Assembly (NCBI GenBank): GCA_016928875.1
Contig: JAFGJY010000089.1
Coordinates: 3,625 to 67,624, forward strand
DNA: 64,000 nt
Direction of reading: 5' to 3'
DNA from: Candidatus Omnitrophota bacterium
GTDB lineage: Bacteria; Omnitrophota; Omnitrophia; JAHJGZ01; JAFGJY01
Shown here in pieces: positions 6,903-62,905 of this stretch. The notes below the pieces were generated by a model. That model ran no database searches. It saw only the letters and a program-made list of their open reading frames with translations, and had not been told where the DNA came from. Position 1 is the first letter of the stretch. Each line of letters begins with the position of its first letter. A program made the position numbers and the translations under genes.

Positions 6903-6938
6903 ATCTTTTCTTCATAAGAATACCAAATGCGGCTGGGT

Positions 6939-38812: not shown

Positions 38813-39158
38813 TTTAGTTATTCGTAAATCGTAATTCGTAAAAAGTAATGCGTAAATCGTGGTTAGTATCTAGTGCCTCGTGTATCCTAATAATAAGCCA
38901 AATATCGGGACGTGCACTCCTTAAAATATATCTATTTTGAGGATAACGTCAAAACTTTAATCAGGGAAACATTTTTAGGATTTATATTTTGCGCACAGAT
39001 TAGTTGATGCGATAACTCTTTTATTTCAATTACGTTATGAACATACACCACGTTTTACGCCTTACGTTTTACGCATTACGCTTCACGCCTCACGTTTTAC
39101 GCATCGCGCCTCACAATTCACCAACCACAATCCACCAGCCACGATTCACCAACCACCT
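38813..39158. repeat. ORF-less inverted-repeat cassette: CGTAA-word arm (38813..38860), ~185-nt core, TTACG-word arm (39049..39113) plus CACCAACC-word block (39114..39158)
   Basis: The arms are mutually complementary word arrays. The 16-mer gtaattcgtaaaaagt (38831..38846) is identical to 39404..39419. The 22-mer gccttacgttttacgcattacg (39059..39080) is identical to 41863..41884. Confidence 0.75.
38925..38952 (-). promoter_or_regulatory. Candidate sigma70-type promoter inside the ORF-less cassette core
   Basis: The minus strand reads TTGACG (38952..38947) - 16 nt - TATATT (38930..38925), ~125 nt upstream of the epimerase ATG. The context is AT-rich, so a chance match is possible. Confidence 0.2.
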
Positions 39159-39382
39159 ACATTATTCCTGACCTTTTCTTTTATCGCCCTATACGTTGTC
39201 ATCTGTTGTATTTCAGCCATCGTGAATTTCATCGAAAACTCGTTTTCAAGCGCTGTGATCATACGTAAATGTGTCATCGAATCCCAATCACCATGAGACA
39301 CCTGGGAAAAATCGTCATTAATAGACTTTACATCAATATCAAAAAAATCCGCCAGAAATTCTTTTAATTGGTCTTCCATCAT
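39146..39382 (-). CDS. Acyl carrier protein
   Basis: 78 aa with GDWDSMTHLRMITALENEF (the DS phosphopantetheine-attachment Ser context). The last codons VGGW-stop are encoded by the CACCAACC-word block. Confidence 0.85.
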   Translation of the reverse strand: MMEDQLKEFLADFFDIDVKSINDDFSQVSHGDWDSMTHLRMITALENEFSMKFTMAEIQQMTTYRAIKEKVRNNVGGW

Positions 39383-39425
39383 ATACCTCGTAAGTCGTAA
39401 AATGTAATTCGTAAAAAGTTAATTG

Positions 39426-39785
39426 TTAGCGTTTCAACGAAAATATCAAACCATTTAACATCTTTTTTATGTCTGTTATTTCTTGTTCAATCTTAAAGGC
39501 ATCTTTAACATAACCCTGTTTTTGTGCTATCACAATATGTGTATCTAATTCTGCAAGAGAACCGAGAGCCACATACAAGAACTGCGCAAACTCCTTTTTT
39601 GATTGCCTGCCTGCACCCTCGGCTATATTGGCCGGGATCGATACAGCAGCACGACGCATTTGACTAATCATCCCAAACTTTTCATCATCAGGAAAAGCTT
39701 TCACTAATACATAGATGTCGCTTACAAGTTCTATGCTTCTTTTCCATACATCGAGATCTTTATGACTTTTGTAAGTACTCATCAC
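39426..39785 (-). CDS. Four-helix-bundle protein (23S rRNA intervening-sequence protein family), copy 1
   Basis: ..KDLDVWKRSIELV..FPDDEKFGMISQMRRAAVSIPANIAEGAGRQSKKEF.QFL.VALGSLAELDT.. is the hallmark of this family. Start is GTG 39785 or ATG 39782. Confidence 0.9.
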   Translation of the reverse strand: MMSTYKSHKDLDVWKRSIELVSDIYVLVKAFPDDEKFGMISQMRRAAVSIPANIAEGAGRQSKKEFAQFLYVALGSLAELDTHIVIAQKQGYVKDAFKIEQEITDIKKMLNGLIFSLKR

Positions 39786-39802
39786 GCCTCACGTTTTACG
39801 CC

Positions 39803-41668
39803 TTACGTCTTACGAATTACCTCGATCCACGGCGTCTCAGTAATGCTACCTTTAACATCAGTACACTCGTACTCTACCGTCCCGTCATCCAGCTTCATCA
39901 CGACCTCAAACCCATGTTCATCAAAAAACGTCTTACACGGCATATTCTTCTTCGTCGGCACATACTCCGCCTTTATCTTATCTATGCCCCATGCACCATG
40001 CACTATGCACTTTTTCAGCACTCCCATCGCCGCCGCCTCTATCCCTCGCCCGAGCGCTCGGCAACTTATTATAAAACTATCTATTACCGCTTCTTTATTT
40101 TCAATTTTTACGAGGTATGTCCCAATAATGCCCAAATTCCCGAACTTATCTTCTGCTTCAACTACATGAAGAATACAATTATTATCTTTATAAAAAATCT
40201 CAATATCGCCAATATCGTAGCGTTTTGTAGTTACATTAAACTGATTGGTTTTAATAAATAACTGGTGAACACGCGCAAGCTGGTCTGTGTTGGGTTTATA
40301 GACCCGCACGGATGTACCTAGCGAATGCAAATACTCATTAATGTCAGTAATAGCACTTTTCTCCTCTTCCCGCTTCCGTTGCTGTTTGTATTGGATTGAC
40401 TTGGTCGCATCTTCGGCCGTGATAGTCAAACGTTCAAAGCACGGCAACGAATAAATAAGAGGTGCATATTCAACGGGGTCATCAGATAACTGTATGGTCA
40501 TGACATCAGGCTGCGCTTCCCTCATAAGCTCGCATTCCGCCGGATTGTCATCTATAAAGACAATACTATCGAGCCCAATATTAAGCTGCCCCGCGATCTT
40601 TGCTATATTCACCGCTTTAGGCTCCCAATCGACCATGATCGCGGAAAAATCATCCAATGAAAGGGGCATCTCTGATGCACGCAGTTTAAAAAGCTCTTCA
40701 ACATCCGCCATATTGTTCTTACTGCAAATCGCTAACAGTATCCCTCTCGCCTTAAGTGACTTTATTGCATATTGGAACGCCCTAAAGGCTTCAGCCTGCG
40801 GATTACCCTGTCCTATCAACACACCCTGCGGCCCATCTTCACCTACTATACCGTCCCACAATGTATTGTCCAGATCAACAACTAAACACTTCATTGCGCA
40901 TCCCTTGATCACTTGAATATATCGAGCAATATCAGCAGCCATAAACCGCATGAAATCATCCGACCATTCGATCTTGGATAAATAATAAAAGGTATCGTCA
41001 CATGCACGTTCACTGCCAAACCGATTAACGGCACCCGCAAGATCATAAATAACAACGCGTGGATCCTTCTTAAATGCCGTACTCAACATAGTGTTAAGGT
41101 GAGCGTAAAATGCACTTTCACCAGCCTCACTTTTTGTATCAGCGATCCCATACGCTTTACGTGCCGGCATTGCAAAATTTGCCACCATGATCATCGACTT
41201 TGTGCTCTTAGAAACCATTTGAACCCACTGTTTACATTCATCGATGATACGGGCAGCCTCAGCTTTATGTTCTGCCGATGATAAAGAGCTATACTGATAA
41301 TAAATATCCGGAGACAATTCTCGCAGTGATAATTGGAAGAAAATGACGCTAGGCTTAGCGGCATATAGGCCAGATTGCGGATTAAGCGCCTCCTGTTGGT
41401 ACTGTCCATAGGGGGCTACATATTCAGAGATCGATATCCCTCTGCACAGCGCTGATGCAATAACATTACGTGAAATTACATCAAGGGTAGTATTTCCCAC
41501 AAATGAAACTTTAATATCCGTTTTATCAGCCTCTTTATTCTTTTTATAAATCAAATCAATGTCCTTTGAGGAAAGGTCTTCAGAAGCAACAGACACAAGT
41601 ATCTTCTTCAACGCAGAAATCGACTCACTATTTTTTATCGACTCTCTTAATTGCTTATTATCACTCAT
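39803..41668 (-). CDS. FkbH-like HAD-IIIC phosphatase/acyl-loading protein with C-terminal GNAT-like domain
   Basis: CLVVDLDNTLWDG (HAD DxDxT) and IFIDDNP. 621 aa. The last codons VIRKT-stop are encoded by the TTACG-word arm. Confidence 0.8.
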   Translation of the reverse strand: MSDNKQLRESIKNSESISALKKILVSVASEDLSSKDIDLIYKKNKEADKTDIKVSFVGNTTLDVISRNVIASALCRGISISEYVAPYGQYQQEALNPQSGLYAAKPSVIFFQLSLRELSPDIYYQYSSLSSAEHKAEAARIIDECKQWVQMVSKSTKSMIMVANFAMPARKAYGIADTKSEAGESAFYAHLNTMLSTAFKKDPRVVIYDLAGAVNRFGSERACDDTFYYLSKIEWSDDFMRFMAADIARYIQVIKGCAMKCLVVDLDNTLWDGIVGEDGPQGVLIGQGNPQAEAFRAFQYAIKSLKARGILLAICSKNNMADVEELFKLRASEMPLSLDDFSAIMVDWEPKAVNIAKIAGQLNIGLDSIVFIDDNPAECELMREAQPDVMTIQLSDDPVEYAPLIYSLPCFERLTITAEDATKSIQYKQQRKREEEKSAITDINEYLHSLGTSVRVYKPNTDQLARVHQLFIKTNQFNVTTKRYDIGDIEIFYKDNNCILHVVEAEDKFGNLGIIGTYLVKIENKEAVIDSFIISCRALGRGIEAAAMGVLKKCIVHGAWGIDKIKAEYVPTKKNMPCKTFFDEHGFEVVMKLDDGTVEYECTDVKGSITETPWIEVIRKT

Positions 41669-41703
41669 ATTTTGGAATATTAAAGGTAGGGTTTCTTATA
41701 TAT

Positions 41704-41833
41704 GTCGCGTCCCGGCTTGTTTTATGTCATTCCCGACTTACTTCACGTCATTTCCGACTTGCTTCACATCATTCCCGACTTGCTTCATGTCATTCCCGAC
41801 TTGCTTCATGTCATTCCCGCGAACGCGGGAATC
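41704..41833. repeat. 21-bp half-palindrome stutter array (about 6 units) ending in a full palindrome
   Basis: Units start at 41704, 41726, 41747, 41768 and 41789 (gtcattcccgacttgcttcat and variants). The terminal unit is gtcattcccgcgaacgcgggaatc (41810..41833). Confidence 0.85.
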
Positions 41834-41862
41834 TATATTGATGTTTCCGTTTAACTTCCCAT

Positions 41863-41949
41863 GCCTTACGTTTTACGCATTACGTCTTACTCCCCGCTAT
41901 CCACCAAGCACTAATCACCAACCACCAACCACTAACCACCATCCACCAA
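41863..41949. repeat. Second copy of the composite TTACG-word + CACCAACC-word block
   Basis: gccttacgttttacgcattacgtcttac, then atccaccaagcactaatcaccaaccaccaaccactaaccaccatccaccaat. It has the same order and orientation as 39049..39158. Confidence 0.8.
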
Positions 41950-44022
41950 TTACTCCACCGCATTCACAACTTTTTGAAGATCAATGCTATCCACTGTGCC
42001 GCTACTGTCAACATCACCGTCAGCAGTGGCCGGCGTTCTTTCGATCACTTGATCTTTTACAATAGTAACATCATCAGCATCGATATCACCGTCCTTGTCT
42101 ACATCTTCTACTAATAATGCTCCAAGATCAGTAATCACTACATCGTCAAAGCTTGCAGCGTCATTATAACTACCGAAACCCACTCTGCCTTGCGGAAGAG
42201 TAACTCCGGTAGCTTGCATAACAAGATTTGTATCAAAGTAAACAGATACGGTGCTACCTTGATAAATAACTCTGACAGGATGAAATGCATTATCCGTTAC
42301 AAGGGCAGCTGCTGTATAACTGGTCAATTCTGTCCTTGTACCATTTACAATCCTAAACAGCTGATTTGAAGCAGCATTAGCATTAAATATTGCATAATAA
42401 TAATTGCTCGCATCTGTATACCCAAACACAACAGCATAGTCTGCATATCCATTCGCCACTAAGTCTTCATCAGAACGAGCATCAAGTTCGATATCAAACG
42501 TATCAAATGATTGGCTATTGAATAATGTATACTCCCCCAACATATCACCGTCTTGGTTAAAATCGGTGGTATTTATCGAATATACGATATTGCCTCCCTC
42601 ATCAACAGTTTCCCATCTACTCCCTGTTTTAGGGGAATAATTTACGGCATTCCCCGCTGTCCCGGGAGCAAAGATAGCATTTGCCGGCGCAGATTCTATA
42701 GTGAACTGATAATTTACCTGCGGCATTACATTAGCCGGATCATGAAGGTCCTGAGCATTAACCTTAATGTCAACATTTTGACCATAACTAAACGGCTGAG
42801 CAGGAGTAAATGTCACTAAATAGTCATTTTGTGAACCTGATATTGTGGGATTAACAAGCTGATCATTTACATACAAACGGATCGATGATTGATCAACCCC
42901 TTCACCCGCATCTAACACATGAAAACTAATTGGAGTATTTGCAGAAACATTAGTACTATTAGCTGTAGGAATGTGCGACGAAATATACGGAGAAGAAAAA
43001 TCATCACCCCCTGATTGACCAATAGTAACTGGGAACCCTACGCTTGGATCTCCATTATTATCAATCACAAACAAATACACTTGATTACCACTCTGAAAAG
43101 TCCCTGTGTTTACTTCTACACTAATGGACGACGCATTCCACGATGTCGGGATTTGTAGCTCACGATGAGTGCAAGCGTTATAGCTCATATTGTTACCTAT
43201 GACAACGCGTGACCAGCTTGAATCTATATATGCATCATCCATTTGAAGCAATGAGCCATCTGTTATGTCACCATAATTGCTATGCCATCCGAACCTATAA
43301 AATCTCCAGGACCCAAGAGAAGTAGAACCACCTAACCACTGGAGATTATCAGATGGATCCAAGTTACAACCACTCTTTAACTCACCATCAACATACCATC
43401 GGGCATATCCATCAGTGGCTATATTTGACGATGGAACACGAATAATAAATTCAAATAAATGCCATTGGTGGAGAGACATATCCCTTGGCGTCCATCCATC
43501 AATCATACTATATGCCGGATTGGCGTTGTTTGGGGTTAAATATGCTGAGCCGCTGACTTCTGACCAACAAAATTCAGCACCAATATCACCACCATGAAAT
43601 CTCATCCACTTATATCCATTTCCCCAGCCTGCATCCGACCAATTCCAGTTGCCAGTACATTTATACCACACAGCAGCATAAAACTTTCCACCATAGGTCG
43701 GTGGCATTGAATTCTTATTATCAAGTGCGCGAGCCCAATTTGTACCCATATCACCCTGCGCAACACCGCCACGCTGCCCATCACTTACAGTTGTAAGCTG
43801 GTAAGGATTGCTCCACTCACTTATATCAATACCATCTTCAAAGTCATCAAAAACCTGAGGAGCTGCTGTTGTTTTAGTCCCAAAGGAACTTCCTCCAATT
43901 GTGACAATTGCCTCATCAGAAAATTCACCACTTACATTATTAATTATTGGAGCAGCACAAACAGAAGAACCACAAGCCACTAGAATTAAAGAAAGAAAAA
44001 GCATGATATATTTATTTTGCAT
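41950..44022 (-). CDS. Secreted multidomain protein: ConA-like/LamG-type jelly-roll domains, Ig-like domain, C-terminal type-I dockerin
   Basis: Start MQNKYIMLFLSLILVACGSSVCAAP (signal peptide; GGAG RBS) at 44022. C-terminus DVDKDGDIDADDVTIV...DGDVDSSGTVDSIDLQKVVNAV is a duplicated Ca-binding dockerin repeat. The middle ..ISFHVLDAGEGVD..IRLYVNDQLV.. is Ig-like. Confidence 0.6.
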   Translation of the reverse strand: MQNKYIMLFLSLILVACGSSVCAAPIINNVSGEFSDEAIVTIGGSSFGTKTTAAPQVFDDFEDGIDISEWSNPYQLTTVSDGQRGGVAQGDMGTNWARALDNKNSMPPTYGGKFYAAVWYKCTGNWNWSDAGWGNGYKWMRFHGGDIGAEFCWSEVSGSAYLTPNNANPAYSMIDGWTPRDMSLHQWHLFEFIIRVPSSNIATDGYARWYVDGELKSGCNLDPSDNLQWLGGSTSLGSWRFYRFGWHSNYGDITDGSLLQMDDAYIDSSWSRVVIGNNMSYNACTHRELQIPTSWNASSISVEVNTGTFQSGNQVYLFVIDNNGDPSVGFPVTIGQSGGDDFSSPYISSHIPTANSTNVSANTPISFHVLDAGEGVDQSSIRLYVNDQLVNPTISGSQNDYLVTFTPAQPFSYGQNVDIKVNAQDLHDPANVMPQVNYQFTIESAPANAIFAPGTAGNAVNYSPKTGSRWETVDEGGNIVYSINTTDFNQDGDMLGEYTLFNSQSFDTFDIELDARSDEDLVANGYADYAVVFGYTDASNYYYAIFNANAASNQLFRIVNGTRTELTSYTAAALVTDNAFHPVRVIYQGSTVSVYFDTNLVMQATGVTLPQGRVGFGSYNDAASFDDVVITDLGALLVEDVDKDGDIDADDVTIVKDQVIERTPATADGDVDSSGTVDSIDLQKVVNAVE

Positions 44023-44070
44023 AGAAAATCTCCTTTTTTTATGTTTTAAATGCAACATTTGTTCCATCAT

Positions 44071-45009
44071 TTATATTTTTATTGTATTACTTAATAATCG
44101 TTTATGTATCATATATAAAACATTCGGCCTTTGCTTATCAATCTTTTTTAAGATTAATTTTGTGTAATCATTCATAACCTCACGCTCTGAAATGACTTCC
44201 GAACATTGTCTGAGTGCGTCTAATATCCCTTTAAACCAATATCTTAGGTACCCATCTCTCAATGAATATACAAACATTGCACCTAAGCCAACGACGAGCA
44301 TTCTCACTGCGTAGAAAAATGAATAGTGTCGAATAACAAGCCAAATCAAGTTCCGCGTGTCATAATAATATCGCCTCCAGTCAGCTCTCGCAACACTTGT
44401 ATGCCAGTGCGTAACCTCAATAGTGGGTGAGTATATAATTGTATATCCCTTATTCATCAGCTGGATCGCAAGATCTGGCCCCTCATGACTTATAAAATAT
44501 CTTTTGGGATATAAATCCGTTTTTAGAAGTGCTTCTTTCCGAAAAGCAACTGCCCCTTCAGTGATCTCATTTGTAAGAAAAACCTTGTTAGCAAAATCCT
44601 CTACCTTGCAGTGATGACACCAATTTATATTCTTTTTTGTTTCAGGATGAAGAACCTTAAAACATATTCCTCCCAGTTGTTTATCTTGATCAAATAGATT
44701 AATTATTAAATTGATCTGCTCTTCATGAATACCTAGCACGTCATCATCAAGACAGATAATAATATCTCCCTTTGCTTGTCGTATCCCAACGTTTCTAGCT
44801 TCTACACCCACGTTTTGATCTTGTTTAAGATATGTGATGTTCTTGTTATTTAGATTTTGGAAAAGATGAGAATTATCGACCTCATTACTATTATCAACAA
44901 CTATCAATTCAACCCAAGGCAAACCAAGCCTCAAGTACTCCTGGAGACTTTTAGCAATATATTCTTTACGATTGAACGTGAGTTTAATTATCGATACTTT
45001 AATTCCCAT
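44071..45009 (-). CDS. Glycosyltransferase family 2
   Basis: VSIIKLTFNRKEY..VVDNSNE..CLDDDV (DxD). Confidence 0.85.
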   Translation of the reverse strand: MGIKVSIIKLTFNRKEYIAKSLQEYLRLGLPWVELIVVDNSNEVDNSHLFQNLNNKNITYLKQDQNVGVEARNVGIRQAKGDIIICLDDDVLGIHEEQINLIINLFDQDKQLGGICFKVLHPETKKNINWCHHCKVEDFANKVFLTNEITEGAVAFRKEALLKTDLYPKRYFISHEGPDLAIQLMNKGYTIIYSPTIEVTHWHTSVARADWRRYYYDTRNLIWLVIRHYSFFYAVRMLVVGLGAMFVYSLRDGYLRYWFKGILDALRQCSEVISEREVMNDYTKLILKKIDKQRPNVLYMIHKRLLSNTIKI

Positions 45010-45018
45010 TTACTCTCC

Positions 45019-45579
45019 TTAAAGTTCATCTCTCATCTTAATTACTCTGGCAGGATTCCCGGCAACAATTGCATTATCAGGAACATCTTTCGTAACAACC
45101 GACCCCGCACCTACAACAGCGTTATTGCCGACAGTTATTCCTTTTAGTAATATAACTCTTCCGCCGATCCAAACATGATCTTTTATGGTGACCGCCCCCA
45201 CACTATACCCATCGAATCCTTCTCTTGTGATCCTATGATCCTGCGTGTATATTACAACATCTTCACCCATCATAACATGATTTCCAATGATCAATTCGCC
45301 GTTACCTCTGACCCATGCATAATTACCTAAATTCGCACATTCACCCAATGAAATCAAATTGCCATTAAATCCAAAATCAACGCCTTTATTTACACTGAAT
45401 GTTTTTCCAGTTTTTTTGAATAATGGCTTACATAAAACCGCACGTATTCTGTTTGATATCGCCCCTACGACTCCCCATCTGTCGCCATAGGGCAAATGAA
45501 TGGCGATGAAATAATAAAGGGAGTAACATAATAATTGCAAAATACCAAGTTTATTCATTCGATCAATAATGTTTTTCAT
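45019..45579 (-). CDS. Hexapeptide-repeat (LbH) acyl/acetyltransferase, WcaF-like
   Basis: ..IGNHVMMGEDVVIYT..VWIGGRVILLKGITVGNNAVVGAGSVV.. . Confidence 0.8.
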   Translation of the reverse strand: MKNIIDRMNKLGILQLLCYSLYYFIAIHLPYGDRWGVVGAISNRIRAVLCKPLFKKTGKTFSVNKGVDFGFNGNLISLGECANLGNYAWVRGNGELIIGNHVMMGEDVVIYTQDHRITREGFDGYSVGAVTIKDHVWIGGRVILLKGITVGNNAVVGAGSVVTKDVPDNAIVAGNPARVIKMRDEL

Positions 45580-45595
45580 ATTTCACCACCTATGT

Positions 45596-46837: not shown

Positions 46838-46852
46838 ATAACACTCTAGAGG

Positions 46853-48702: not shown

Positions 48703-48721
48703 ATTATCTCCTTCAAGTTTG

Positions 48722-49861: not shown

Positions 49862-49865
49862 AACC

Positions 49866-52377: not shown

Positions 52378-52411
52378 ATTTAATATCTTCTTAACCCAAT
52401 CTTGAGACATA

Positions 52412-53779: not shown

Positions 53780-53983
53780 CAGGATTACATGCTTTAATTA
53801 GCTTCGTAGGCCACCCTCTAAAATGCAGCCGCCGCTGGATCTTTCGTTAACACACCCTTATAGAAGTCATTCCTCCTGCCTTGGCAAACACCGTCTTATG
53901 TGCGCCGACACATGGCATCTTAATGTTAGACCATAATCGGGGATAATATTGTTTTAATACAATGTTGTACTAGTAATCGTATG

Positions 53984-55102
53984 CTATGCTTCTTTCAAGA
54001 AGCGCTCATAGTAAATTTCGTGTTTTGAAACCATTGCATCTAATAAAAACTCCTTCTTTACATAATTAAAAGCTTTGTCTGTTAAATCTGTCCTTAATTT
54101 TTCATCATCTAATAATGAAATTATCGCATCTGCTATAGAATCGGCATTCCCTCGCTCGGCGAGCAATCCATTCTCTCTATCTTTAATGATTTCCATATTC
54201 CCAGGATTATTAGTCACAATCACAGCACACTTGCATGCCATATACTCAAGCACAGCATTAGACAATCCTTCAGTATCAGACGTATTAACCGCTATATCAA
54301 ATACACACATGACAGGTAAAACATCATCAACTAATCCAAGAAATTGCATTTTATCTCCAAATTTTCCTTCTCTCGCCATTTCTTGCAAACATTCTCTTTG
54401 ATATCCATCACCAACGACAAGAAATACTAAGTCCCTCTTTAGTTCATAAACTCGTTTTGCAGCTTGTATGAATAGGTCTACTCGCTTAACCACTCTATTG
54501 AAATTCGAAACTATACCTACTACAGGAATGCCTTCAGCTATCTTTAAGTTATGTCGAATACGCTGATTATTAATACATATATCCTTTATATTGAGGGCCG
54601 CATCTAAACCATTATGTATTACAGAGATGAAATCAGTCGTTATTTTTTCGTTTTTAATAACACTCTGCTTAACTGCTTCAGAATTAGCTAACACACCATG
54701 AGACAACATATTGGCTAACTTCATCAGAAACTTTGTCTTTGTATTATACCAAAACCCCAAGTCACGTCGTGATGAAATCCGGACAGGAACTCCTGATAAA
54801 TATGCGCATAATATCCCGACGACTGTTGCATCAATAAAATATGTATGAACAACATCTGGTTTGATTCTTTTTAAGTACTGAACAATGCGAACAATACGTC
54901 TTATTGTCTTGAAAGACATCAATTTATCTATCTTAAATAAATTAACCGTGAAATCAAGTTCTCCTTGGTTTTTCCCCGGTTGATCTTTAAGGCAACAAAG
55001 CTCAACCTCGTGCCCTCGTTCAATTAACTTTCTAACCAAAAGAATTAGCTGCCTTTCAGTTCCTCCACAACCTAAAGAATCGATAAAATAAATGATTTTC
55101 AT
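53984..55102 (-). CDS. Glycosyltransferase family 4
   Basis: MKIIYFIDSLGCGGTERQL; C-terminus ..NTSDTEGLSNAVLEYMACKCAVIVT. Confidence 0.85.
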   Translation of the reverse strand: MKIIYFIDSLGCGGTERQLILLVRKLIERGHEVELCCLKDQPGKNQGELDFTVNLFKIDKLMSFKTIRRIVRIVQYLKRIKPDVVHTYFIDATVVGILCAYLSGVPVRISSRRDLGFWYNTKTKFLMKLANMLSHGVLANSEAVKQSVIKNEKITTDFISVIHNGLDAALNIKDICINNQRIRHNLKIAEGIPVVGIVSNFNRVVKRVDLFIQAAKRVYELKRDLVFLVVGDGYQRECLQEMAREGKFGDKMQFLGLVDDVLPVMCVFDIAVNTSDTEGLSNAVLEYMACKCAVIVTNNPGNMEIIKDRENGLLAERGNADSIADAIISLLDDEKLRTDLTDKAFNYVKKEFLLDAMVSKHEIYYERFLKEA

Positions 55103-56640
55103 TGTCCAATACTCTCGTAAATATTGATATCAAGTTTTCTATCGAAATGAAGTTGCTTAAAGTTCTCTTCTAAGAATTTCTTAACCTCAGGTTTAAAATA
55201 CCTCTTATCATCAAGATCATCAAATCTTGATACAAAATAAACTTTTTTATGGGCTAAGACTTTTCTTATTATATTTAAATCCTCAATTCTTTTTGGGTTT
55301 CTGACTGATTCATCAAGTGACTCCATAAAACTCCATAGATAATCAGGTTCTTTACCAAAATAATAACAAAAATGTTCCCATTCTGTTGATACAAATACAG
55401 CATCCCTATCGATCTTATCTTTTATTGATTCATAGAAAGCCTTATAATCCCCCCAAGTACATTTAATTGCTCTATCGATAGCGGGAAGTGCAATAGGAAC
55501 AGTAATTATAAATATGAATACAAGTATAAAAAGACTCAAACCCGCCTTGATGGCCATTGCCTTTTCTTTCATGCTTTTCATCGCTCTATTAATGATAACT
55601 GACGCAAAAACAGCAGGAATAAGCAAATAAAATGAAATCCCATAAAAGAAATATCTCTCTTGTTTGACTCGAAACAAAAATGAATGCAATAGCACTAACG
55701 TTAAGAAAACAATACTGAAATACAAACCGCGACGTTTATACTTTTGGATCATACAAACTATGCCAAAAGGGAGAAAATATATCATAACCCCATAATAATC
55801 GGTTAATATCCATCGATAATAATGAGGAGAGAACGTCATATATTTGTCCCACCCTAATCCATAACGCGCTATTGTGTAGAACTCGATCATGTATTCTTTC
55901 TTCACAAAATAGCAGATCATAAATAATAAAGGAATTCCTACTAAAGTAAGTAAATATTTATACCACACCCCGGAAAACCGCTCCTCTCTGTCATAGGTAA
56001 CAATTACGAAGCGAATAATGGCATAAAAGAATAGAACAAAAGAAAAGTTTGCTGCCAACGGCTGAAGAATGAACGCAACTCCAAAGGCAAGACATGATAA
56101 AAAAAGCATTGTCGGTGATATCTGCATTTTATTTATGATTGGAATTCCCTTGATAATATGTTTGTCTCGATTTTGTTCATAGCCTTCGAAGAAGAACCAA
56201 ACCCCCGTAAAAAAGAATAGGTTAAAAAGAGCATACATCCGGCAACCGCGAGCGAAGTGAATGTTCAATGGGCTAAGTGCCAAGAATAACATAAATATAA
56301 ATGCCACATTAAGCCCAAAAACACTTCTCACCAAAAGAAATCCTATAATTATAAAAGCGATATCGAATATTACCGAAGGGAACCGAGCAGACCATTCATC
56401 CCTTCCAAAAAGTTTAAACGAAGCAGCAACACTATATGTGAATGGCAGAGCTCGCGTATAAAGTCGTTCTGGTGGAATTATGGGTTGACCCGTCTCAATA
56501 ATACCCTTGGCGGCCAACACATGAAAAAACTCATCTTGCCAAAAGCCGAACTTCCCAAGGTCCCACAATCTCAAACAAAGAGCTACACCGATAATCAAAA
56601 TGAACAAAGCAACATAAATAGTTTTATTATGTATTTTCAT
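55099..56640 (-). CDS. Membrane GT-C glycosyltransferase (ArnT/GT39/GT83-like), second copy
   Basis: The start MKIHNKTIYVALFILIIGVALCLRLWDLGKFGFWQDEFFH at 56640 forms an ATGA overlap and follows a GGGAGG RBS. The D-E loop after TM1 is typical of GT-C. The protein is polytopic with a soluble C-terminus. Confidence 0.65.
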   Translation of the reverse strand: MKIHNKTIYVALFILIIGVALCLRLWDLGKFGFWQDEFFHVLAAKGIIETGQPIIPPERLYTRALPFTYSVAASFKLFGRDEWSARFPSVIFDIAFIIIGFLLVRSVFGLNVAFIFMLFLALSPLNIHFARGCRMYALFNLFFFTGVWFFFEGYEQNRDKHIIKGIPIINKMQISPTMLFLSCLAFGVAFILQPLAANFSFVLFFYAIIRFVIVTYDREERFSGVWYKYLLTLVGIPLLFMICYFVKKEYMIEFYTIARYGLGWDKYMTFSPHYYRWILTDYYGVMIYFLPFGIVCMIQKYKRRGLYFSIVFLTLVLLHSFLFRVKQERYFFYGISFYLLIPAVFASVIINRAMKSMKEKAMAIKAGLSLFILVFIFIITVPIALPAIDRAIKCTWGDYKAFYESIKDKIDRDAVFVSTEWEHFCYYFGKEPDYLWSFMESLDESVRNPKRIEDLNIIRKVLAHKKVYFVSRFDDLDDKRYFKPEVKKFLEENFKQLHFDRKLDINIYESIGQ

Positions 56641-57551
56641 ACCTCCCACCGCTTCATTTTTACTATCAATTTGTGGCCTGATAAAAAGAATATCAAATGA
56701 TCGAATTGCGCGAAGAGCCAAAATAACGGATATGTCAGTGAATACGCCATAAATAGTTTCTTGTATTTATTCATGTCATGTGAAGTCACGACGTTGCCTT
56801 TGGATGGTTCTGTGTTCTGGGTTGCACGCTCGGATAAGTTCTGAGTTCCGAGTTCTGAGTTCTGGGTAGCGACATTGGATGAGTTCGGGGTTCGGGGTTC
56901 GGGGTTCTGAGATGTACACTCTGAACTCTGAACTCTGAACTCAGAACCTTTTAACAATCCCATCCCAAAACAAATAATGATGTCTATCAATTCCGAAAAG
57001 AAACGTGAATAGGCCCGGGATGTGGCTACATCAAAGCTATCGAAGAGCTCTGCAAGCTCTTTTTTTGTATACCCGGGGCGTACATGCCCGTGCTTTTCGT
57101 CTGTTAACCCTAGCATATATTGTAAAGGCCGTATGAGTGACCACGATACTTTATGCGGCGCAAGTACTATTAATTCACCTTCCGGCTTCAATATGCGTTT
57201 AATTTCCAGCGCAAAAGCGTGATCGTCCTCTACGTGTTCTAGCATATCAACGATAACGATAACGTCAAAAGCATGATCAGCAAATGGCAGATGAGGCGGA
57301 TTGTCGATATGCACGACATTAGTTTTAACCAATGACTCGATCGAGTTAACCGTTTCCATACTGAGATCCGCACTCGTCCATTGACCACCTTGCTGTCGCA
57401 ATAAATAACTGATAACACCATTATCAGAACCCAGATCAAGACAGGCCTTGTTATCTAGGTTAGGTAGTAAACGATTAATCTGGTGCCATTTTTCTTTCTT
57501 GAGCACTGATTTTGAGAATAATTTTAAATGCCAATTATCCATTGCGTTCAC
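56637..57551 (-). CDS. Class I SAM-dependent methyltransferase (type 11) with an in-frame repeat insertion near the C-terminus
   Basis: CLDLGSDNGVISYLL (motif I), FDVIVIVDMLEHVEDD. The segment SEFRVQSSECTSQNPEPRTPNSSNVATQNSELGTQNLSERATQNTEP is encoded by the repeat at 56807..56948. Confidence 0.8.
   Translation of the reverse strand: MNAMDNWHLKLFSKSVLKKEKWHQINRLLPNLDNKACLDLGSDNGVISYLLRQQGGQWTSADLSMETVNSIESLVKTNVVHIDNPPHLPFADHAFDVIVIVDMLEHVEDDHAFALEIKRILKPEGELIVLAPHKVSWSLIRPLQYMLGLTDEKHGHVRPGYTKKELAELFDSFDVATSRAYSRFFSELIDIIICFGMGLLKGSEFRVQSSECTSQNPEPRTPNSSNVATQNSELGTQNLSERATQNTEPSKGNVVTSHDMNKYKKLFMAYSLTYPLFWLFAQFDHLIFFLSGHKLIVKMKRWEV
56807..56948. repeat. ORF-less GTTCTGAG-word palindromic element inside the methyltransferase CDS
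   Basis: The left arm gttctgagttccgagttctgagttctggg (56838..56866) matches the reverse complement of the right arm ctctgaactctgaactctgaactcagaacc (56919..56948) at about 25/29 positions. The centre holds a gttcggg x3 tandem (56883..56905). Confidence 0.8.
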
Positions 57552-58557
57552 TCGTCCCTACTAATTTACGTAATGCCCCATACCCCAAATACTGATCGGC
57601 CAAAAATGTTATTGCATATTGAAACGGAATCCCGCCGATCTGCTTACGGCACAGGCGGTCGCATTTCTTACAAAGTGAAAGCTCGTTAACGTTCCCTGCT
57701 AAATTACGCCGGAGCGTTGTATACGCCGCGCCGTTCCATATTTCTTTAATAGAACTCTTGCTGACGTTCCCGAGGTTCATACACGCCATAAAGTCCTGAG
57801 GACAAGGCGTTACGGTTCCATCCCAACATATGACCATTGCGTACCATGGGAACGTGCATACATTACCGTTCAGGATCTCGCCGCCTTTATTCGATTCAAC
57901 GGCCCAGTCATATTCCTGCTTAGTAATGATCTCATTTACCCCAAGGTCACGGAATTCCTGCTCAAGCGCGCGCGTCTCAGCCGTGTCAACGTTCATGCTC
58001 TCATCTTTAAAATGAATACGTTCGATAACAATGTACGGGAGTGCCTCCCTCAACTGTTTCTTGCGTTTGAGGAGTTCTTTTATGTTCGCCACCGTTGTCT
58101 CAAAATTCCCGCCGCGACGGACCTTTTCGTATACATCCTTGGTAAAACCGTCAAAAGAAATAGATACTAAATTCGGGGCGGCTTCGATAAGGAGTTCTGA
58201 CTTATCAAGCGAAAGCAACCCGGCATTGGTGTGAAAACGCACTGCAATCCCTCTATTCTTTGCATATATGATCATTTTAAAGAGGTCTTTGTTCGTAAGC
58301 GGTTCCCCGCGATGATGCAAATAGACATCATTCACAAAATCTTTAGCCTCATCAATGATCTTTTTAAAGAGTTCAAAACTCATCTTCCCTTTCTTCTCTG
58401 CGGCCAAATCTTTGTTTGGGCACATCACACATTTGAGGTTACAGATCAGGCTTGACTCGATCCACAGCTTGATGGGCATGGTATCGAGCGTGGTCTTACG
58501 GCGCTTAAAGTTCGCGAGTATTTTGGCGAGGGTGTAGGTCTTATGTATAAAGTTCAT
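57535..58557 (-). CDS. Radical SAM enzyme with SPASM/twitch-like C-terminal Cys cluster
   Basis: SSLICNLKCVMCP (CxxxCxxC). C-terminus CTFPWYAMVICWDGTVTPCPQDF..C...CKKCDRLC. Paralogue of 11690..12781. Confidence 0.8.
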   Translation of the reverse strand: MNFIHKTYTLAKILANFKRRKTTLDTMPIKLWIESSLICNLKCVMCPNKDLAAEKKGKMSFELFKKIIDEAKDFVNDVYLHHRGEPLTNKDLFKMIIYAKNRGIAVRFHTNAGLLSLDKSELLIEAAPNLVSISFDGFTKDVYEKVRRGGNFETTVANIKELLKRKKQLREALPYIVIERIHFKDESMNVDTAETRALEQEFRDLGVNEIITKQEYDWAVESNKGGEILNGNVCTFPWYAMVICWDGTVTPCPQDFMACMNLGNVSKSSIKEIWNGAAYTTLRRNLAGNVNELSLCKKCDRLCRKQIGGIPFQYAITFLADQYLGYGALRKLVGTSERNG

Positions 58558-58580
58558 AGTTCTGGGTTCTGGGTTCTGGG

Positions 58581-58943
58581 TTATTTTAATTTTTGTGAAA
58601 AAGTAAATATCATTCGTGATAATATGTCTAATTCTTCTAATAGAGCCTTTTGTTTATCATCAGTAATATATCCTTGGTTCGCGGAAATAAACACTTGCGT
58701 TTCAAGTTCTGCGATAGAGCCACGTGCTACTGCTAAAAATTGTTTAAATTCCTTCGCATGATTTCTTCTGAATCCCTCAGCAATATTTGATGGGACCGAA
58801 ACTGAAGCCCGTCTCATTTGAGATATCATCCCAAACTTCTCGTCTTCTGGATATTTTTTCGTGATCTCATATATAGCATTGACGATATCCATCCCTTTCT
58901 GCCATATTTTTAAATCTTTATAGTGCTTTATTCCTTCTGTCAT
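58581..58943 (-). CDS. Four-helix-bundle protein (23S rRNA IVS protein family), copy 2
   Basis: ..YKDLKIWQKGMDIV..YPEDEKFGMISQMRRASVSVPSNIAEGFRRNHAKEFKQFLAVARGSIAELET.. . Confidence 0.9.
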   Translation of the reverse strand: MTEGIKHYKDLKIWQKGMDIVNAIYEITKKYPEDEKFGMISQMRRASVSVPSNIAEGFRRNHAKEFKQFLAVARGSIAELETQVFISANQGYITDDKQKALLEELDILSRMIFTFSQKLK

Positions 58944-58966
58944 AGTTAATTATAACTTTCTACTAA

Positions 58967-59100
58967 GTCCTGGGTTCAGCGTTCTGTGTCCTGAGTTAAT
59001 TCAACTTCTTTGCGAATGTTAATATCAAATGCTTTTTTCTTCTCTTATTCTAATATCCTAGCGTTCAACCCAGAACCCAGAACGCTGTACTCTGAACTCA
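58967..59100. repeat. GTTCTGGG-word arms upstream of 4HB copy 2 (an inverted pair around an AT-rich ~65-nt loop)
   Basis: gtcctgggttcagcgttctgtgtcctgagtt (58967..58997) pairs with gttcaacccagaacccagaacgctgtactctgaactca (59063..59100). There is a perfect 10-mer pair at 58977..58986 / 59078..59087. A third arm, gttctgggttctgggttctgggtt, lies at 58559..58582. Confidence 0.8.
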
Positions 59101-60036
59101 TTCAATGATCTCCGCGATGTGATATTCTTTGATATTCCGCGCGTGTGTAAAAATGATCAATTCCCCGAGCAACCCCAGGGAGGAAACCTGTACACCAAGG
59201 ACCATGAGGAGCATTCCCAACAATACCATGGGACGGTCAGCCAATGCCTCGTTCAGAAAAAGTCTCGCGTAGCCTAAATATGCCGTAATGAGCGTCCCCA
59301 TTACAAACACGGTGCTTCCTATCAATCCAAAAAATCTCAAGGGTTTGCGGGTGAATTTGATGATAAAAAAGAGTGAAATGATATCGATCATCCGCCGTAC
59401 ATATACTCCAATGCCATAAAACCTTAGTTTTTTATCTTCTTCGCGTTGCTGTGCCGGCAGCTCGCTGATCTTGTATCCCTGCTGGAACGCAAGGATCGGT
59501 ATAAAACGATGCATGTCCCCCGTCAGATTAAGGCCTTTCGCAACCTCAGCCCGCATGCACCTGAGACCGCAGGAAATATCTTTAAATGAAAAGTTCGTGA
59601 AATTCTTAATGAGCCCATGGAACACCGCGGCTTGTACCCTATTAATGATATTGTCCTGGCGCGGTTCGCGACGCGTTATAACGAGGTCATAACCGTGCTC
59701 AAGTTCATCGAGCATAGTGTTCATGACGTCCGGTACGACCTGAAAGTAGGCTGACAGCGTGAAGATTATATCTCCGCGGGCGTGTTCGAAGCCTACCATA
59801 AGGGCAACCGCTTCAAAGAAGTTTCGTGCGAATTTGATGATACGTATCTCGGGGAATTCCTGGCGTAATCCTTTGAGTGCCTGGAATGCGTCATTATGCA
59901 CGCCATCAACGACGAAAATGAATTCGAACGTCAAACCGCGTGCTTTTAAGGGTTGTGAGTATTCGGTGAAGAGTTTACGCAAATCGTGATAGCGTTCGAT
60001 CACAGGAACCACTACGGAAATCTTTGGATTATTCAT
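59098..60036 (-). CDS. GT2 polyprenol-phosphate glycosyltransferase-like (DPM1/GtrB/ArnC-type, C-terminal TM helices)
   Basis: ISVVVPVIERYHD...FIFVVDGVHND..; two C-terminal TM helices (..FFGLIGSTVFVMGTLITAYL.., ..VLLGMLLMVLGVQVSSLGLLGELII); GAGGAG RBS. Confidence 0.7.
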   Translation of the reverse strand: MNNPKISVVVPVIERYHDLRKLFTEYSQPLKARGLTFEFIFVVDGVHNDAFQALKGLRQEFPEIRIIKFARNFFEAVALMVGFEHARGDIIFTLSAYFQVVPDVMNTMLDELEHGYDLVITRREPRQDNIINRVQAAVFHGLIKNFTNFSFKDISCGLRCMRAEVAKGLNLTGDMHRFIPILAFQQGYKISELPAQQREEDKKLRFYGIGVYVRRMIDIISLFFIIKFTRKPLRFFGLIGSTVFVMGTLITAYLGYARLFLNEALADRPMVLLGMLLMVLGVQVSSLGLLGELIIFTHARNIKEYHIAEIIE

Positions 60037-60082
60037 TTATGTTCTCCTCTTGTAATTATAATTGGTGCGGGTTGTTTTTTAT

Positions 60083-60185
60083 TGTCATCCTGAGACGAGC
60101 GAAGCGAGGCGAAGGATCCAGGATAAGCATTCACGTGGTACTTGTAGCCTAGATCCTTCGCCCCTCCGGGGCTCAGGATGACAGC
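60083..60185. repeat. Hairpin MITE family A, copy 2 (intergenic, abutting the stop of 60187..61146)
   Basis: tgtcatcctgagacgagcgaagcgaggcgaaggatccaggataagc...cctagatccttcgcccctccggggctcaggatgacagc. The minus-strand frame AVILSPGGAKDLGYKYHVNAYPGSFASLRSSQDD is open. Confidence 0.85.
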
Positions 60186-60186
60186 A

Positions 60187-61146
60187 TTATTTAATTATTT
60201 CAGCTGTAACTGTACTTAATTTTTCCGCTTTGTATTTTCCTTGCCGTAAAATGATCACGCTTAATAACGCTAAAAAAATAAAATGCGTCACCAGCATGAG
60301 CATCAGCAATGTCGCTCCGGGAAAGACGATGCCCGGCGTATGCGCAAAGATATAATGTTCTATGGTCGCGATGAGACAGAGCACGCTTAATGCCAGGAAC
60401 GGTAATGTCCAGAACGCGAAGAATAATGCCGGCTTTGTTGAGAAACGAGTTAAAAGCACCATAGTAAATAGATCCGCAAACACCTTGAACGTCCGTGAAA
60501 GCCCGTATTTTGATTTCCCATACACCCTCGCATAATGGTTCACCGGCATCTCCGCGGTACGAGCACCGGTGATCGAAGCCACTGCCGGGAAAAAGCGATG
60601 CATCTCAGCGTATGCCTGCACTTCCCTGATACATTCCCGTTTGTATGCCTTGAGCGAACAACCGTAATCGTGCAAATGAACGCCGGTGAGGATCGATATG
60701 AGCTTATTGGCACACATTGAGGGTAACTTGCGCGTTAAGAATTTATCCTGGCGTTTGTACCGCCACCCGCTCACGACCTCATAGCCTTCGTCCATCTTAT
60801 CAAGCAACTTTTTCATATCAGCCGGATCGTTCTGCAGATCGCCGTCCATGGTAATAATGATATCGCCGCGTGCGTGATCGAAACCCGCGACCATGGCCGG
60901 CGTCTGGCCGTAATTCTTTCTGAAGCGGATAACGCGCAGGTCATTGGTGCCTGACACCAACTGTTTCAATATCTCAGGTGTCTTGTCACTCGAGCCATCA
61001 TCGATCAATATGATCTCATACGAACGCCCAAGCTTTACCGCTTCATCGTGGACACGCTCATAGAGCTTCTTAACGCATTCTTGTTCGTTGTAAATAGGAA
61101 TTACGATCGACAGATCAGGGTTCATGGTGCATAGTTCATGGTTCAT
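60187..61146 (-). CDS. GT2 polyprenol-phosphate glycosyltransferase (ArnC/GtrB-like)
   Basis: LSIVIPIYNEQE..ILIDDGSSDKT..ITMDGDLQNDP plus C-terminal TM helices. ATG 61146 forms ATGA with the 4HB stop. The first 7 codons (MNHELCT) lie in the repeat arm; an alternative start is ATG 61125 (MNPDLSIVIP). Confidence 0.85.
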   Translation of the reverse strand: MNHELCTMNPDLSIVIPIYNEQECVKKLYERVHDEAVKLGRSYEIILIDDGSSDKTPEILKQLVSGTNDLRVIRFRKNYGQTPAMVAGFDHARGDIIITMDGDLQNDPADMKKLLDKMDEGYEVVSGWRYKRQDKFLTRKLPSMCANKLISILTGVHLHDYGCSLKAYKRECIREVQAYAEMHRFFPAVASITGARTAEMPVNHYARVYGKSKYGLSRTFKVFADLFTMVLLTRFSTKPALFFAFWTLPFLALSVLCLIATIEHYIFAHTPGIVFPGATLLMLMLVTHFIFLALLSVIILRQGKYKAEKLSTVTAEIIK

Positions 61147-61508
61147 GGTACGATACTCTTCATTAATGCTGTAATTTTACGGCCTAATTGAGACAGCAAG
61201 CTCAATAATCGTTCTTTAATTTCATTATTTAAAAATCCCAAATTATATGAAAGCATTACTTGCGTTTCTAATTCAGCTAACGACCCTCGCGCGATACTCA
61301 AAAACTGCTTAAACTCTTTCTTGTGTGAACGTCGAAACCCTTCTGCAATATTCGAAGGAATTGAAACCGCAGCTCTTTTCATTTGTATAACAATTCCATA
61401 TTTTTCTTCATCGGGATAATTGCTACAGACCTCGTAGACAAATTTAGCCAAGACCATCCCCTCTTGCCACACGATCAAATCTTGATATGTCTGTATCTTT
61501 TTATTCAT
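61143..61508 (-). CDS. Four-helix-bundle protein (23S rRNA IVS protein family), copy 3
   Basis: MNKKIQTYQDLIVWQEGM..YPDEEKYGIVIQMKRAAVSIPSNIAEGFRRSHKKEFKQFLSIARGSLAELET.. . The start at 61508 was chosen by alignment with copies 1 and 2; the ORF-track GTG at 61535 lies in the repeat arm. Confidence 0.9.
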   Translation of the reverse strand: MNKKIQTYQDLIVWQEGMVLAKFVYEVCSNYPDEEKYGIVIQMKRAAVSIPSNIAEGFRRSHKKEFKQFLSIARGSLAELETQVMLSYNLGFLNNEIKERLLSLLSQLGRKITALMKSIVP

Positions 61509-61552
61509 ATTCTTTATTGCTTTACCATGCACCACGCACTATGCACCATGCA

Positions 61553-62386: not shown

Positions 62387-62444
62387 TTGGTGCTCCTTGT
62401 ATATCGTATAGCGTATTGCGTCGTGCGTATTGCGTTGCACCCCT

Positions 62445-62555
62445 CGTCATCATTACGAAAGAGTGCAGGGCCCTTGCTTCCGTCGTCATTGCGAAAGAGT
62501 GCAGGGCCCTTACTTCCGTCGTCATTGCGAGTGAACACAGCGCTCTTACTCTTCA
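62445..62555. repeat. 36-bp half-element stutter array (about 3 units) leading into MITE A copy 3
   Basis: Units cgtcatcattacgaaagagtgcagggcccttgcttc (62445..62480), cgtcgtcattgcgaaagagtgcagggcccttacttc (62481..62516), and a degenerate third unit. Confidence 0.8.
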
Positions 62556-62801: not shown

Positions 62802-62905
62802 TGTCGTCCTCAGCCTCTTCCCTTTGTCGTCCCGGAATTCTTCTGTCGTCCCCGCGGAAGCGGGGATCTCGGTACTTAGGTCCCCGCTTTCGCGGGGACG
62901 ACATG
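62802..62905. repeat. Family B palindromic element, copy 1, preceded by about 21-bp tgtcgtcc stutter units
   Basis: tgtcgtcc starts at 62802, 62824 and 62844, then gtccccgcggaagcggggat-ctcggtacttag-gtccccgctttcgcggggac (62844..62905). Confidence 0.8.

Follow-up and report, generated by a model that had tools for sequence, protein, structure and literature searches.

Introduction

The closest described counterparts of the element reported here are the intervening sequences (IVSs) of 23S rRNA, known from Leptospira and Coxiella burnetii, in which a terminal inverted-repeat stem encloses an open reading frame (ORF) of protein family PF05635 (S23p in Coxiella burnetii). In the ORF-bearing IVS of Coxiella, RNase III cleaves in the middle of the 28-bp terminal stem that surrounds the S23p ORF, and the ORF is decaying (PMC4990558). 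The PF05635-type family has been called functionally uncharacterised (PMC11270868, PMC10053308). Here we describe an IVS-type stem-ORF-stem element, the cassette, which encodes a protein of this family, is built of heptamer arrays and lies in mRNA. Three cassettes and two ORF-less units occur in a 64,000-nt stretch of a Candidatus Omnitrophota metagenome-assembled genome (the window, whose positions are used throughout), with the cassette genes on the minus strand.

A cassette consists of three to six tandem G/U-rich words of ~7 nt, a basic four-helix ORF of ~120 aa, and a reverse-complement array. It is co-directional with its host genes and fits exactly into the interval from one gene's stop codon to the next gene's start codon, mainly in surface-polysaccharide operons. 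Like the 23S rRNA IVSs, it is an insertion in a transcribed host RNA that could be looped out, its distribution is sporadic and horizontal-looking, and it has ORF-less versions. Unlike them, it has polycistronic mRNA as its host and protein-coding flanks, with no Rfam rRNA in the window or in 80 related loci; its arms are 7-nt arrays with a G-rich 5′ polarity that abut stop and start codons; and its ORF is under purifying selection, whereas that of Coxiella is reported to decay.

Two other systems share parts of this design. Heptamer direct repeats have been reported in Beggiatoaceae, cyanobacteria and Bacteroidetes, with a proposed translational role and 169 direct sets against one indirect (PMC4679880). 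The cyanobacterial short tandemly repeated repetitive (STRR) sequences and the TAACTGA repeats resemble the cassette arrays in their period of 7, their tandem ‘forward’ intergenic placement upstream of starts, their stop-codon words and their spread over several phyla. Their words differ from those of the cassettes, and they are direct repeats to which no ORF family is linked (PMC4679880), whereas the cassette arrays are complementary pairs around a specific gene. The second system is Avd of diversity-generating retroelements (DGRs; bAvd, PDB 4DWL), a distant sequence and structural homolog of the cassette protein and likewise a small basic four-helix bundle. Unlike Avd genes, cassette genes have no adjacent reverse transcriptase (RT), template repeat or variable repeat, their products score below the Avd model, and they stand singly in biosynthetic operons, between arms. 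Avd itself is a pentamer that binds nucleic acid. In the full-text literature, subscription-only papers being outside its coverage, we found no description of heptamer-flanked PF05635 cassettes.

Results and discussion

Three four-helix-bundle genes are enclosed by complementary heptamer arrays

A sequence-only reading of the window had proposed three paralogous ORFs, each bracketed by inverted repeats, together with two ORF-less repeat pairs. All of these were found where that reading had placed them, and their polarity is constant: in the mRNA sense the 5′ arm is G/U-rich (G-type; CGTAArr, GTTCTGG or GTGCATG) and the 3′ arm is its C/A-rich complement (C-type). The units, C1 to C3 with an ORF and E1 and E2 without, are composed as follows.

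39783..39821, minus strand: C1 5′ arm, G/U-rich heptamers CGTAAGA, CGTAAGG, CGTAAAA, CGTGAGG, CGTGATG
39426..39785, minus strand: C1 ORF, 119 aa, PF05635/TIGR02436 four-helix-bundle protein
39383..39420, minus strand: C1 3′ arm, TTTACGA/ATTACAT words, ending at the Shine-Dalgarno (SD) sequence and ATG (39382) of the downstream acyl-carrier-protein (ACP) gene
59065..59100, minus strand: C2 outer 5′ arm, GTTCAGA/GTTCTGG words, its first triplet being the TGA stop (59098-59100) of the upstream family 2 glycosyltransferase (GT2) gene
58966..58997, minus strand: C2 inner C-type array, CAGAAC words, 78% complementary to the outer 5′ arm
58581..58943, minus strand: C2 ORF, 120 aa, PF05635/TIGR02436
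58549..58584, minus strand: C2 3′ arm, CCCAGAA three times, containing the ATG (58557) of the downstream radical-SAM/SPASM gene
61522..61554, minus strand: C3 5′ arm, GTGCATG, GTGCATA, GTGCGTG, GTGCATG, overlapping the TAG stop (61553-61555) of the polysaccharide deacetylase gene
61143..61508, minus strand: C3 ORF, 121 aa, PF05635/TIGR02436
61119..61151, minus strand: C3 3′ arm, CCATGAA words, overlapping the C3 ORF stop and containing the downstream GT2 start (MNPDLSIVIPIYNE, ATG ~61125)
39046..39110, minus strand: E1 5′ arm, CGTAArr words
38865..39045, minus strand: E1 interior, ~180 nt, AT-rich
38813..38864, minus strand: E1 3′ arm, TTTACGA words, ending ~10 nt short of the epimerase gene's SD (gene start 38798)
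56833..56951, minus strand: E2 ORF-less unit, one G-type arm (56916-56950), a 7-nt loop and two to three C-type arms

The cassette arms overlap or adjoin host genes at both ends. That of C1 on the 5′ side includes the stop of the FkbH-like gene (39803-39805) as well as an SD-like GAGG and the start of the C1 ORF. In C2, 120 nt separate the outer 5′ arm from the ORF and include the extra C-type array (58966-58997), and this inner array could pair with the outer arm instead, giving a local ORF-less hairpin. Nearly all ORFs of 130 aa or more in the window are on the minus strand, and the genes around the cassettes are those of glycan biosynthesis (GT2s, polysaccharide deacetylase, radical-SAM/SPASM, methyltransferase, PMT_2, FkbH-like, ACP and epimerase).

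The three proteins are unambiguous family members, matching PF05635 (‘23S_rRNA_IVP’) with E 6e-37 to 8e-39 and 126-132 bits (cut-off 33.8) and TIGR02436 (‘four helix bundle protein’) with 118-130 bits (cut-off 24), and they are 40-47% identical to one another. The family is very large, with 23,527 clusters at 50% identity reaching E <= 1e-3. A search of the six-frame translation of the window with the family hidden Markov model (HMM) returned no fourth copy or relic. Purifying selection acts on the cassette ORF, with dN/dS of 0.06-0.20 across five close pairs. Its product is basic (pI 9.1-9.4 in the window; median 9.16 in the census described below), and the closest solved structure is XCC0516 (PDB 2GSC, E 3e-25), an entry with five chains. 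The Avd-like cassette protein, with its pI of ~9, is probably a nucleic-acid-binding oligomer. No defence-system model of PADLOC matched the cassette proteins. We rejected a phage-borne element, because only two relatives of the protein were found among viral contigs.

The sequence-only reading had given the cassettes words of differing length (5-10 nt). This did not hold: Tandem Repeats Finder assigned period 7 to every array, and at lag 7, 105 positions of the window reach 17 or more self-matches out of 21, against 0-1 at each other lag from 4 to 12. It is scarcely credible, therefore, given arrays far above chance in both window and census, with fixed polarity and with arms that co-vary, that the repeats are meaningless, slippage-prone low-complexity DNA. 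We place in the same category the idea that the ORFs are ordinary Avd accessory genes of DGRs. There are weak matches to bAvd/DivGenRetAVD and to the PHROG ‘Avd protein of DGR’, but the scores are 20-30 bits for the DivGenRetAVD equivalog NF033474 (cut-off 80) and 19-28 bits for PF22296 bAvd (cut-off 40), and no RT is found among the genes adjacent to the ORFs (GT2, deacetylase, radical SAM, FkbH-like, ACP).

Arms are complementary over 41 nt (78%) in the C1/E1 class (38820-38860 with 39064-39104), over 32 nt (88%) in C2 (58551-58582 with 59067-59098), over 31 nt (87%) in C3 (61120-61150 with 61523-61553) and over 30 nt (87%) in E2 (56838-56867 with 56918-56947). As the sequence-only reading had anticipated, the arm duplexes of all five units are more stable than dinucleotide-shuffled controls: −27.2 kcal/mol for C1 (z −4.0), −43.2 for C2 (z −9.0), −43.4 for C3 (z −7.8), −44.9 for E1 (z −6.2) and −39.7 for E2 (z −6.1). 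A long-range closing stem is present in the minimum-free-energy fold of each whole cassette, and the ORF-less units fold better than shuffles as a whole (z −3.8 for E2 and −3.0 for E1). Around the cassettes, promoter and terminator scans gave counts not above those in shuffles, and no terminator was found at any arm. At gathering thresholds Rfam matched nothing in the window, and a permissive scan of 38.7-42.1 kb was also empty.

On this analysis we favour an account that we rate as possible, at a little less than an even chance, in which the arms pair and loop the cassette out of the message. The cassette would live within host transcripts, and in the polycistronic RNA its two arms would form an imperfect helix of 25-45 bp with the ORF in the loop. 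Host stop and next host start would then face each other at the stem base, and therefore the insertion would be structurally self-excluding and neutral, as an IVS is in rRNA. The flanking genes could remain translationally coupled, with a terminating ribosome melting the stem base and so exposing the next start. The homologous rRNA IVSs make it plausible, by analogy, that RNase III would act on this helix; a cut there would free the cassette mRNA and divide the operon transcript into segments.

The units are accessory relative to a syntenic genome

A second Omnitrophota genome (GCA_042576765.1; loci L082 and L113; 42-80% amino acid identity) is syntenic with both halves of the cassette region. 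It lacks all three ORFs and both ORF-less units, and no PF05635 ORF was found in its 16 kb of syntenic DNA. The five units are therefore accessory relative to this genome, a distant comparator that reveals presence and absence rather than gain versus loss or exact boundaries. The corresponding sites compare as follows.

FkbH/ACP junction: in the relative (L113), a 159-nt spacer with a G-type array, a repetitive extragenic palindromic (REP)-like hairpin and a C-type array, without an ORF; in the window, C1
ACP/epimerase junction: in the relative, 16 nt; in the window, E1, ~330 nt
Deacetylase/GT2: in the relative (L082 4011-5822), a fused gene of 603 aa; in the window, two genes with C3 exactly at the domain boundary
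GT2/radical SAM junction: in the relative, a REP-like hairpin only; in the window, C2
Methyltransferase: in the relative, 256 aa; in the window, 304 aa

At the deacetylase/GT2 boundary the 5′ arm of C3 supplies the stop and its 3′ arm the start; this may reflect fission by insertion or a later fusion. E2 is an in-frame palindromic insertion of ~42 aa in a class I S-adenosylmethionine-dependent methyltransferase (56637-57551), and none of nine aligned homologs, nor the syntenic ortholog, has the insert. In the relative, the FkbH/ACP junction (L113 1329-1500) still holds G-type and C-type arrays, which flank a REP-like hairpin in place of the ORF, so the arms either outlive the four-helix ORF or predate it. 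Hence ORF-less hairpins can reside in coding sequence, and arms can exist without an ORF.

Neither a relic of the four-helix ORF nor an Rfam match was found in the interior of E1, and a sigma-70-like site in it (38952-38925) is not above chance expectation. We rejected E1 as a recognisably decayed cassette because the family HMM, run on all six frames, found only the three ORFs. In a metagenome scan with the neighbouring radical-SAM protein, only relatives of at most 38% identity were found, none with a cassette.

Intergenic spacers in both Omnitrophota genomes repeatedly carry the REP-like GC-rich hairpin (TGTCGTCCCCGCGGAAGCGGGGATCT…; window 2592-2647, 62844-62903 and 63886-63978; L082 ~5845-5935 and 6885-6950; L113 1370-1450), and in the relative it occupies junctions that hold cassettes in the window.

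The packaging recurs in relatives from more than 20 phylum-level lineages

We took relatives of the cassette protein from a scan of one genome per species, which gave at least 475, and kept the best 80 (48-62% identity). These come from more than 20 phylum-level lineages of bacteria and some archaea: Bacteroidota, Nitrospirota, Geobacter, Campylobacterota, Chlorobium, Ignavibacteria, Cloacimonadota, Calditrichota, Chloroflexota, Synergistia, Clostridia, Planctomycetia, Elusimicrobia, Kiritimatiellia, Fibrobacteres, Saccharibacteria, Beta- and Gammaproteobacteria and Omnitrophota, with ANME-1 and Halobacteriota among the archaea. Cultivable carriers include Sphingobacterium alkalisoli, Lutibacter, Sediminicola luteus, Mariniflexile aquimaris, Sulfurovum sp. 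CS9 and Flavobacterium spp., and Flavobacterium psychrophilum/columnare and Riemerella are carriers with dense genome sampling. Denominators below are 75 loci for period-7 arrays, 77 for core words and complementarity, and 72 for neighbour direction.

The proposed flanking arms recur in these relatives with the same architecture and polarity. Within 150 nt, period-7 arrays were found upstream in 45/75 loci and downstream in 42/75, against 17/303 control windows; period 8 adds 13 upstream and 11 downstream, and lags 5-6 give ~0. G exceeds C in 38 of the 45 upstream arrays, and C exceeds G in all 42 downstream ones. A GT[GA]A core at 7-8-nt spacing occurs upstream in 36/77 loci and its counterpart T[CT]AC downstream in 39/77; ~60% of loci share the core, and the wrong polarity was seen in just four loci per arm (controls, 6/233 and 1/233 windows). 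The consensus heptamer is G-T-R-A-[TCA]-[GT]-[AC], most often in runs of four.

Neighbouring genes are co-directional upstream in 64 and downstream in 68 of the 72 loci, with median gaps of 63 and 56 nt, and ~90% of cassettes are co-oriented with both neighbours. The median distance is 5 nt from the upstream stop to the 5′ arm and 22 nt from the 3′ arm to the downstream ATG. A Pfam tally of 117 neighbours included the following.

30: NAD-dependent sugar epimerases/dehydratases
25: GDP_Man_Dehyd
16: Polysacc_synt_2
7: UDP-GlcNAc 2-epimerases
5: NTP_transferase (RmlA-type)
5: Polysacc_synt_C
5: His_biosynth (Nitrospirota loci, at the hisA-hisF junction as read by eye)

Flippases and some ABC2/Wzt exporters are also present; the hisA/hisF, rmlA and gmd neighbours were identified by eye. 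None of the 80 loci is in an rRNA gene, the only Rfam match being one tRNA fragment, and the family name therefore reflects a rare habitat. In the sequence-only reading, an IVS-like stem-ORF-stem architecture had colonised a polycistronic glycan operon. The layout, the mRNA context and the accessory insertion stand, but local colonisation does not: arm-ORF-arm packaging is a family-wide habit of this protein branch.

The core TRA is a stop codon, and all three frames are closed within 70 nt upstream of the ORF in 61/77 loci compared with 28/77 downstream. This raises the question of whether the arrays are translational punctuation, the 5′ array placing stops in three frames and the G-poor, stop-poor 3′ array serving as an unstructured leader with starts, such that genes are split without polar effects and pairing is incidental. 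Periods 7 and 8, neither a multiple of three, would suit such a role, as would the TGA/TAA in the core, the host stop and start codons within arms, and the position of C3 exactly where the relative has a fused deacetylase-GT2. Yet the C2 word GTTCTGG holds no stop codon, the arrays of E2 and of a census locus (L083, below) are read through in frame, any AT-rich spacer closes three frames easily, and the co-variation of arms described next is left unexplained. We therefore consider punctuation as the basis of the arrays very unlikely.

The two arms of a locus co-vary

If the arms are kept as a pair, each should match its own partner better than those of other loci. The median ungapped score for complementarity was 14.5 between arms of the same locus and 8.0 between loci; own-arm scores exceeded the cross-locus 95th percentile in 36/77 loci and the 99th in 19/77. 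Among 25 loci with phased GTRA heptamers in both arms, identity at the variable positions was 0.69 within a locus, a value that 0/2000 permutations reached, versus 0.46 between loci. At an orthologous site in Nitrospirota (read as hisA-cassette-hisF), the words GCGTAAT/ATTACGC, GAGTAAT/ATTACTC and GAGTGAT/ATCACTC change in concert. The arms evolve much faster than the ORF: between two loci with 85-95% nucleotide identity in the flanks and ~93% in the ORF (L001 and L004), the 5′ arm region is 25-42% and the 3′ arm 72% identical. The co-variation is real, and could be maintained by RNA pairing, by DNA hairpins or by copying from arm to arm.

The pairwise co-variation that the sequence-only reading had put forward for testing was therefore found. 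Its proposal that every cassette has a private word stands only partly: a few classes are reused across the window and ~60% of relatives share the GTRA core. Three word classes occur in the window, each at no fewer than three sites: GTGCATG, the class of C3, appears again at 1450-1568 and 39980-40016, and the CGTAA class at 1575-1605 and 41865-41890. Arms can also pair across units, the C1 5′ arm with the E1 3′ arm at −40.5 kcal/mol (own partner, −27.2) and C2 with E2 at −41.3 kcal/mol.

Several results weigh against looping of the cassette out of mRNA by its arms. Whole-cassette folding energies are no better than those of shuffles (z −0.2 to −1.9), in contrast to those of the arms alone, because the coding interior dominates. 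The arm pairs of L001 and L004 are weak (~18 nt with three mismatches). Mismatches between arms show no excess of G·U (70-71) over A·C (81-84), and the sense and antisense strands give equal duplex energies (32 vs. 30 loci, p = 0.87), so pairing could be kept at the DNA level or by copying. The shared GTRA core (~60% of loci) and the fixed polarity exceed what pairing alone needs. Finally, the census covers the closest 80 relatives in a family of ~23,500 clusters. The readings considered here are not mutually exclusive.

The strand symmetry of mismatches and energies is what would be expected of a DNA-level mobile element, in which the inverted arrays are hairpin or cruciform ends (like those of miniature inverted-repeat transposable elements (MITEs), REPs or attC sites) whose structure is read by a recombinase or transposase acting in trans, one arm is copied from the other, and the protein is cargo or an accessory. 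Hypervariable arms between a conserved ORF and conserved flanks agree with this view, as do the presence and absence of units at syntenic sites, the existence of ORF-less units (one in frame in a coding sequence), the L083 cassette inside a longer ORF, and the scatter of the family across phyla including archaea. Mobility, however, is inferred from presence/absence and phyletic scatter alone. In the annotated neighbourhoods, no transposase, integrase or RT lies in or adjacent to any cassette (the whole window was not searched for RT); no clear target-site duplication was evident by eye, no systematic search for one having been made; arms differ between copies in one genome; and no near-identical copies exist, the paralogs being only 40-47% identical, which argues against a recent copy. 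The ~90% co-orientation and the exact stop-to-start placement would also be unexpected unless later selection were strong. We regard a DNA-level element as unlikely.

Described mobile elements fit in part. Like the Rickettsia palindromic elements (RPEs) and MITEs, E2 is a hairpin inserted in frame, at a surface loop of the methyltransferase, which leaves the host ORF intact and carries no transposase; unlike them, it is built of heptamers, there is no sequence relationship, same-genome copies are not near-identical, and no target-site duplication was seen by eye. Integron cassettes (an ORF with attC) are likewise promoterless, co-oriented small ORFs with imperfect inverted repeats whose structure is conserved over sequence, but here the ORF lies inside the inverted repeat, the units are singly dispersed rather than stacked at intI/attI, and the annotated neighbourhoods hold no integrase. 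As regards insertion sequences (ISs) and MITEs, the cassettes have no transposase gene, their arms differ among copies and the paralogs are 40-47% identical. We rejected integron and DGR assignments, and regard a classical IS assignment as unlikely.

The conserved core points in another direction, namely that the arrays are periodic protein-binding sites. The encoded Avd-like oligomer would wrap or coat four to five heptamers on single-stranded RNA, in a manner like that of TRAP, and so regulate translation of its own gene and its neighbours, complementarity being secondary. A GTRA core at 7-8-nt spacing across phyla, with fixed polarity and a commonest run of four, would be apt for such sites; the protein is basic, its homolog 2GSC has five chains and Avd is a pentamer, and other genes in the window have unpaired G-type arrays upstream. 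For Beggiatoaceae, a role of heptamer direct repeats in translational regulation has been proposed (PMC4679880). Against this, the words of C2 and C3 and ~40% of census loci do not have the GTRA core, a single-strand site cannot recognise both a word and its complement, and locus-specific co-variation of the arms is left unexplained. Binding sites as the primary function of the arrays are, in our view, clearly unlikely.

Returning to arms that pair in mRNA, a broader extension of that account is quite improbable: cassettes would be transcript-resident genes, selfish or domesticated, and a cross-phylum mRNA counterpart of rRNA IVSs. Co-evolving heptamer arms would insulate the cassette from its host operon, the Avd-like oligomer would recognise the arrays specifically, and it might govern either processing and coupling of long glycan operons or an RNA-based spread with an RT in trans, echoing the Avd-RT partnership.

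The cassette gives a very large family named after a rare habitat a concrete, testable context, with candidate roles in RNase III processing, in translational coupling across a looped-out insert and in array binding by the protein. It links two old puzzles, the purpose of the IVS ORF and the role of intergenic heptamer repeats, and it bears on the expression of very long glycan operons. It also matters for annotation, where translated arms give false N-terminal extensions, split genes occur and coding sequences (CDSs) contain in-frame inserts.

Family representatives with unusual lengths or hosts

Many family representatives (e.g. P0122, P0123, P0161 and P0210) are 145-260 aa long with the domain at the C-terminus. 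These could fit upstream over-extension by gene callers through the stop-poor part of a 5′ arm; real fusions are the alternative. The gene call for the C3 ORF, at 130 aa, is an example of extension upstream into the 5′ arm.

In L083 (IMGVR_UViG_3300001682_000446, 103-1617), an armed cassette with G-type and C-type arrays and an ORF at 656-1021 lies inside a longer gene, a 504-aa ORF that reads in another frame through both arms and the whole cassette ORF. By eye, the flanks of this longer ORF look like one continuous PglX/BREX-methyltransferase-like sequence (…GCMFGRYSLD… / …DADNVIPICDDEYFDDDIV…). An alternative frame open over ~145 codons by chance is unlikely.

In a Bacteroidales locus (L015 716-1379), a second copy of the cassette is split in the conserved PSNI|AEG motif by an insert of ~285 nt. 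This encodes a small protein that by eye resembles a GIY-YIG (URI) nuclease, and would be a selfish element nested in a cassette.

Further arrays and repeats in the window

Heptamer arrays also occur outside the five units, at the following sites.

39112..39157, minus strand: G-type array of the GGTGGTT class, encoding the last residues of the ACP (VGGW*) and the stop, without a complementary partner nearby
41865..41950, minus strand: two unpaired G-type arrays, of the GGTGGTT and then the CGTAA class, directly after the stop of the upstream 706-aa gene
39980..40016, minus strand: C3-class G-type array (GTGCATA, GTGCATG, GTGCATG, GGGCATA) within the FkbH-like CDS, in a variable loop
1450..1605, minus strand: G-type GTGCATG/GTTCATA arrays (1450-1493, 1534-1568) and a C-type TTACGAA array (1575-1605)

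The array at 39980-40016 is translated as ‘CIVHGAWGI’ in the FkbH-like protein. As a candidate for a second in-frame length insertion it was rejected, the lengths of homologs there agreeing within 1-6 aa.

The spacer in front of the FkbH-like gene contains, just downstream of the unpaired arrays, 5.2 tandem copies of a 21-nt unit (GGGAATGACATGAAGCAAGTC; 41710-41819, minus strand). The upstream end of the cluster holds a 36-nt tandem repeat (2.4-2.9 copies, 62445-62550) and period-7 arrays of CGTATTG/GTATATC words (62397-62435 and 63040-63075). The sole large plus-strand ORF of the window (20102-21400, 432 aa) lies amid ~50 otherwise uniformly minus-strand genes.

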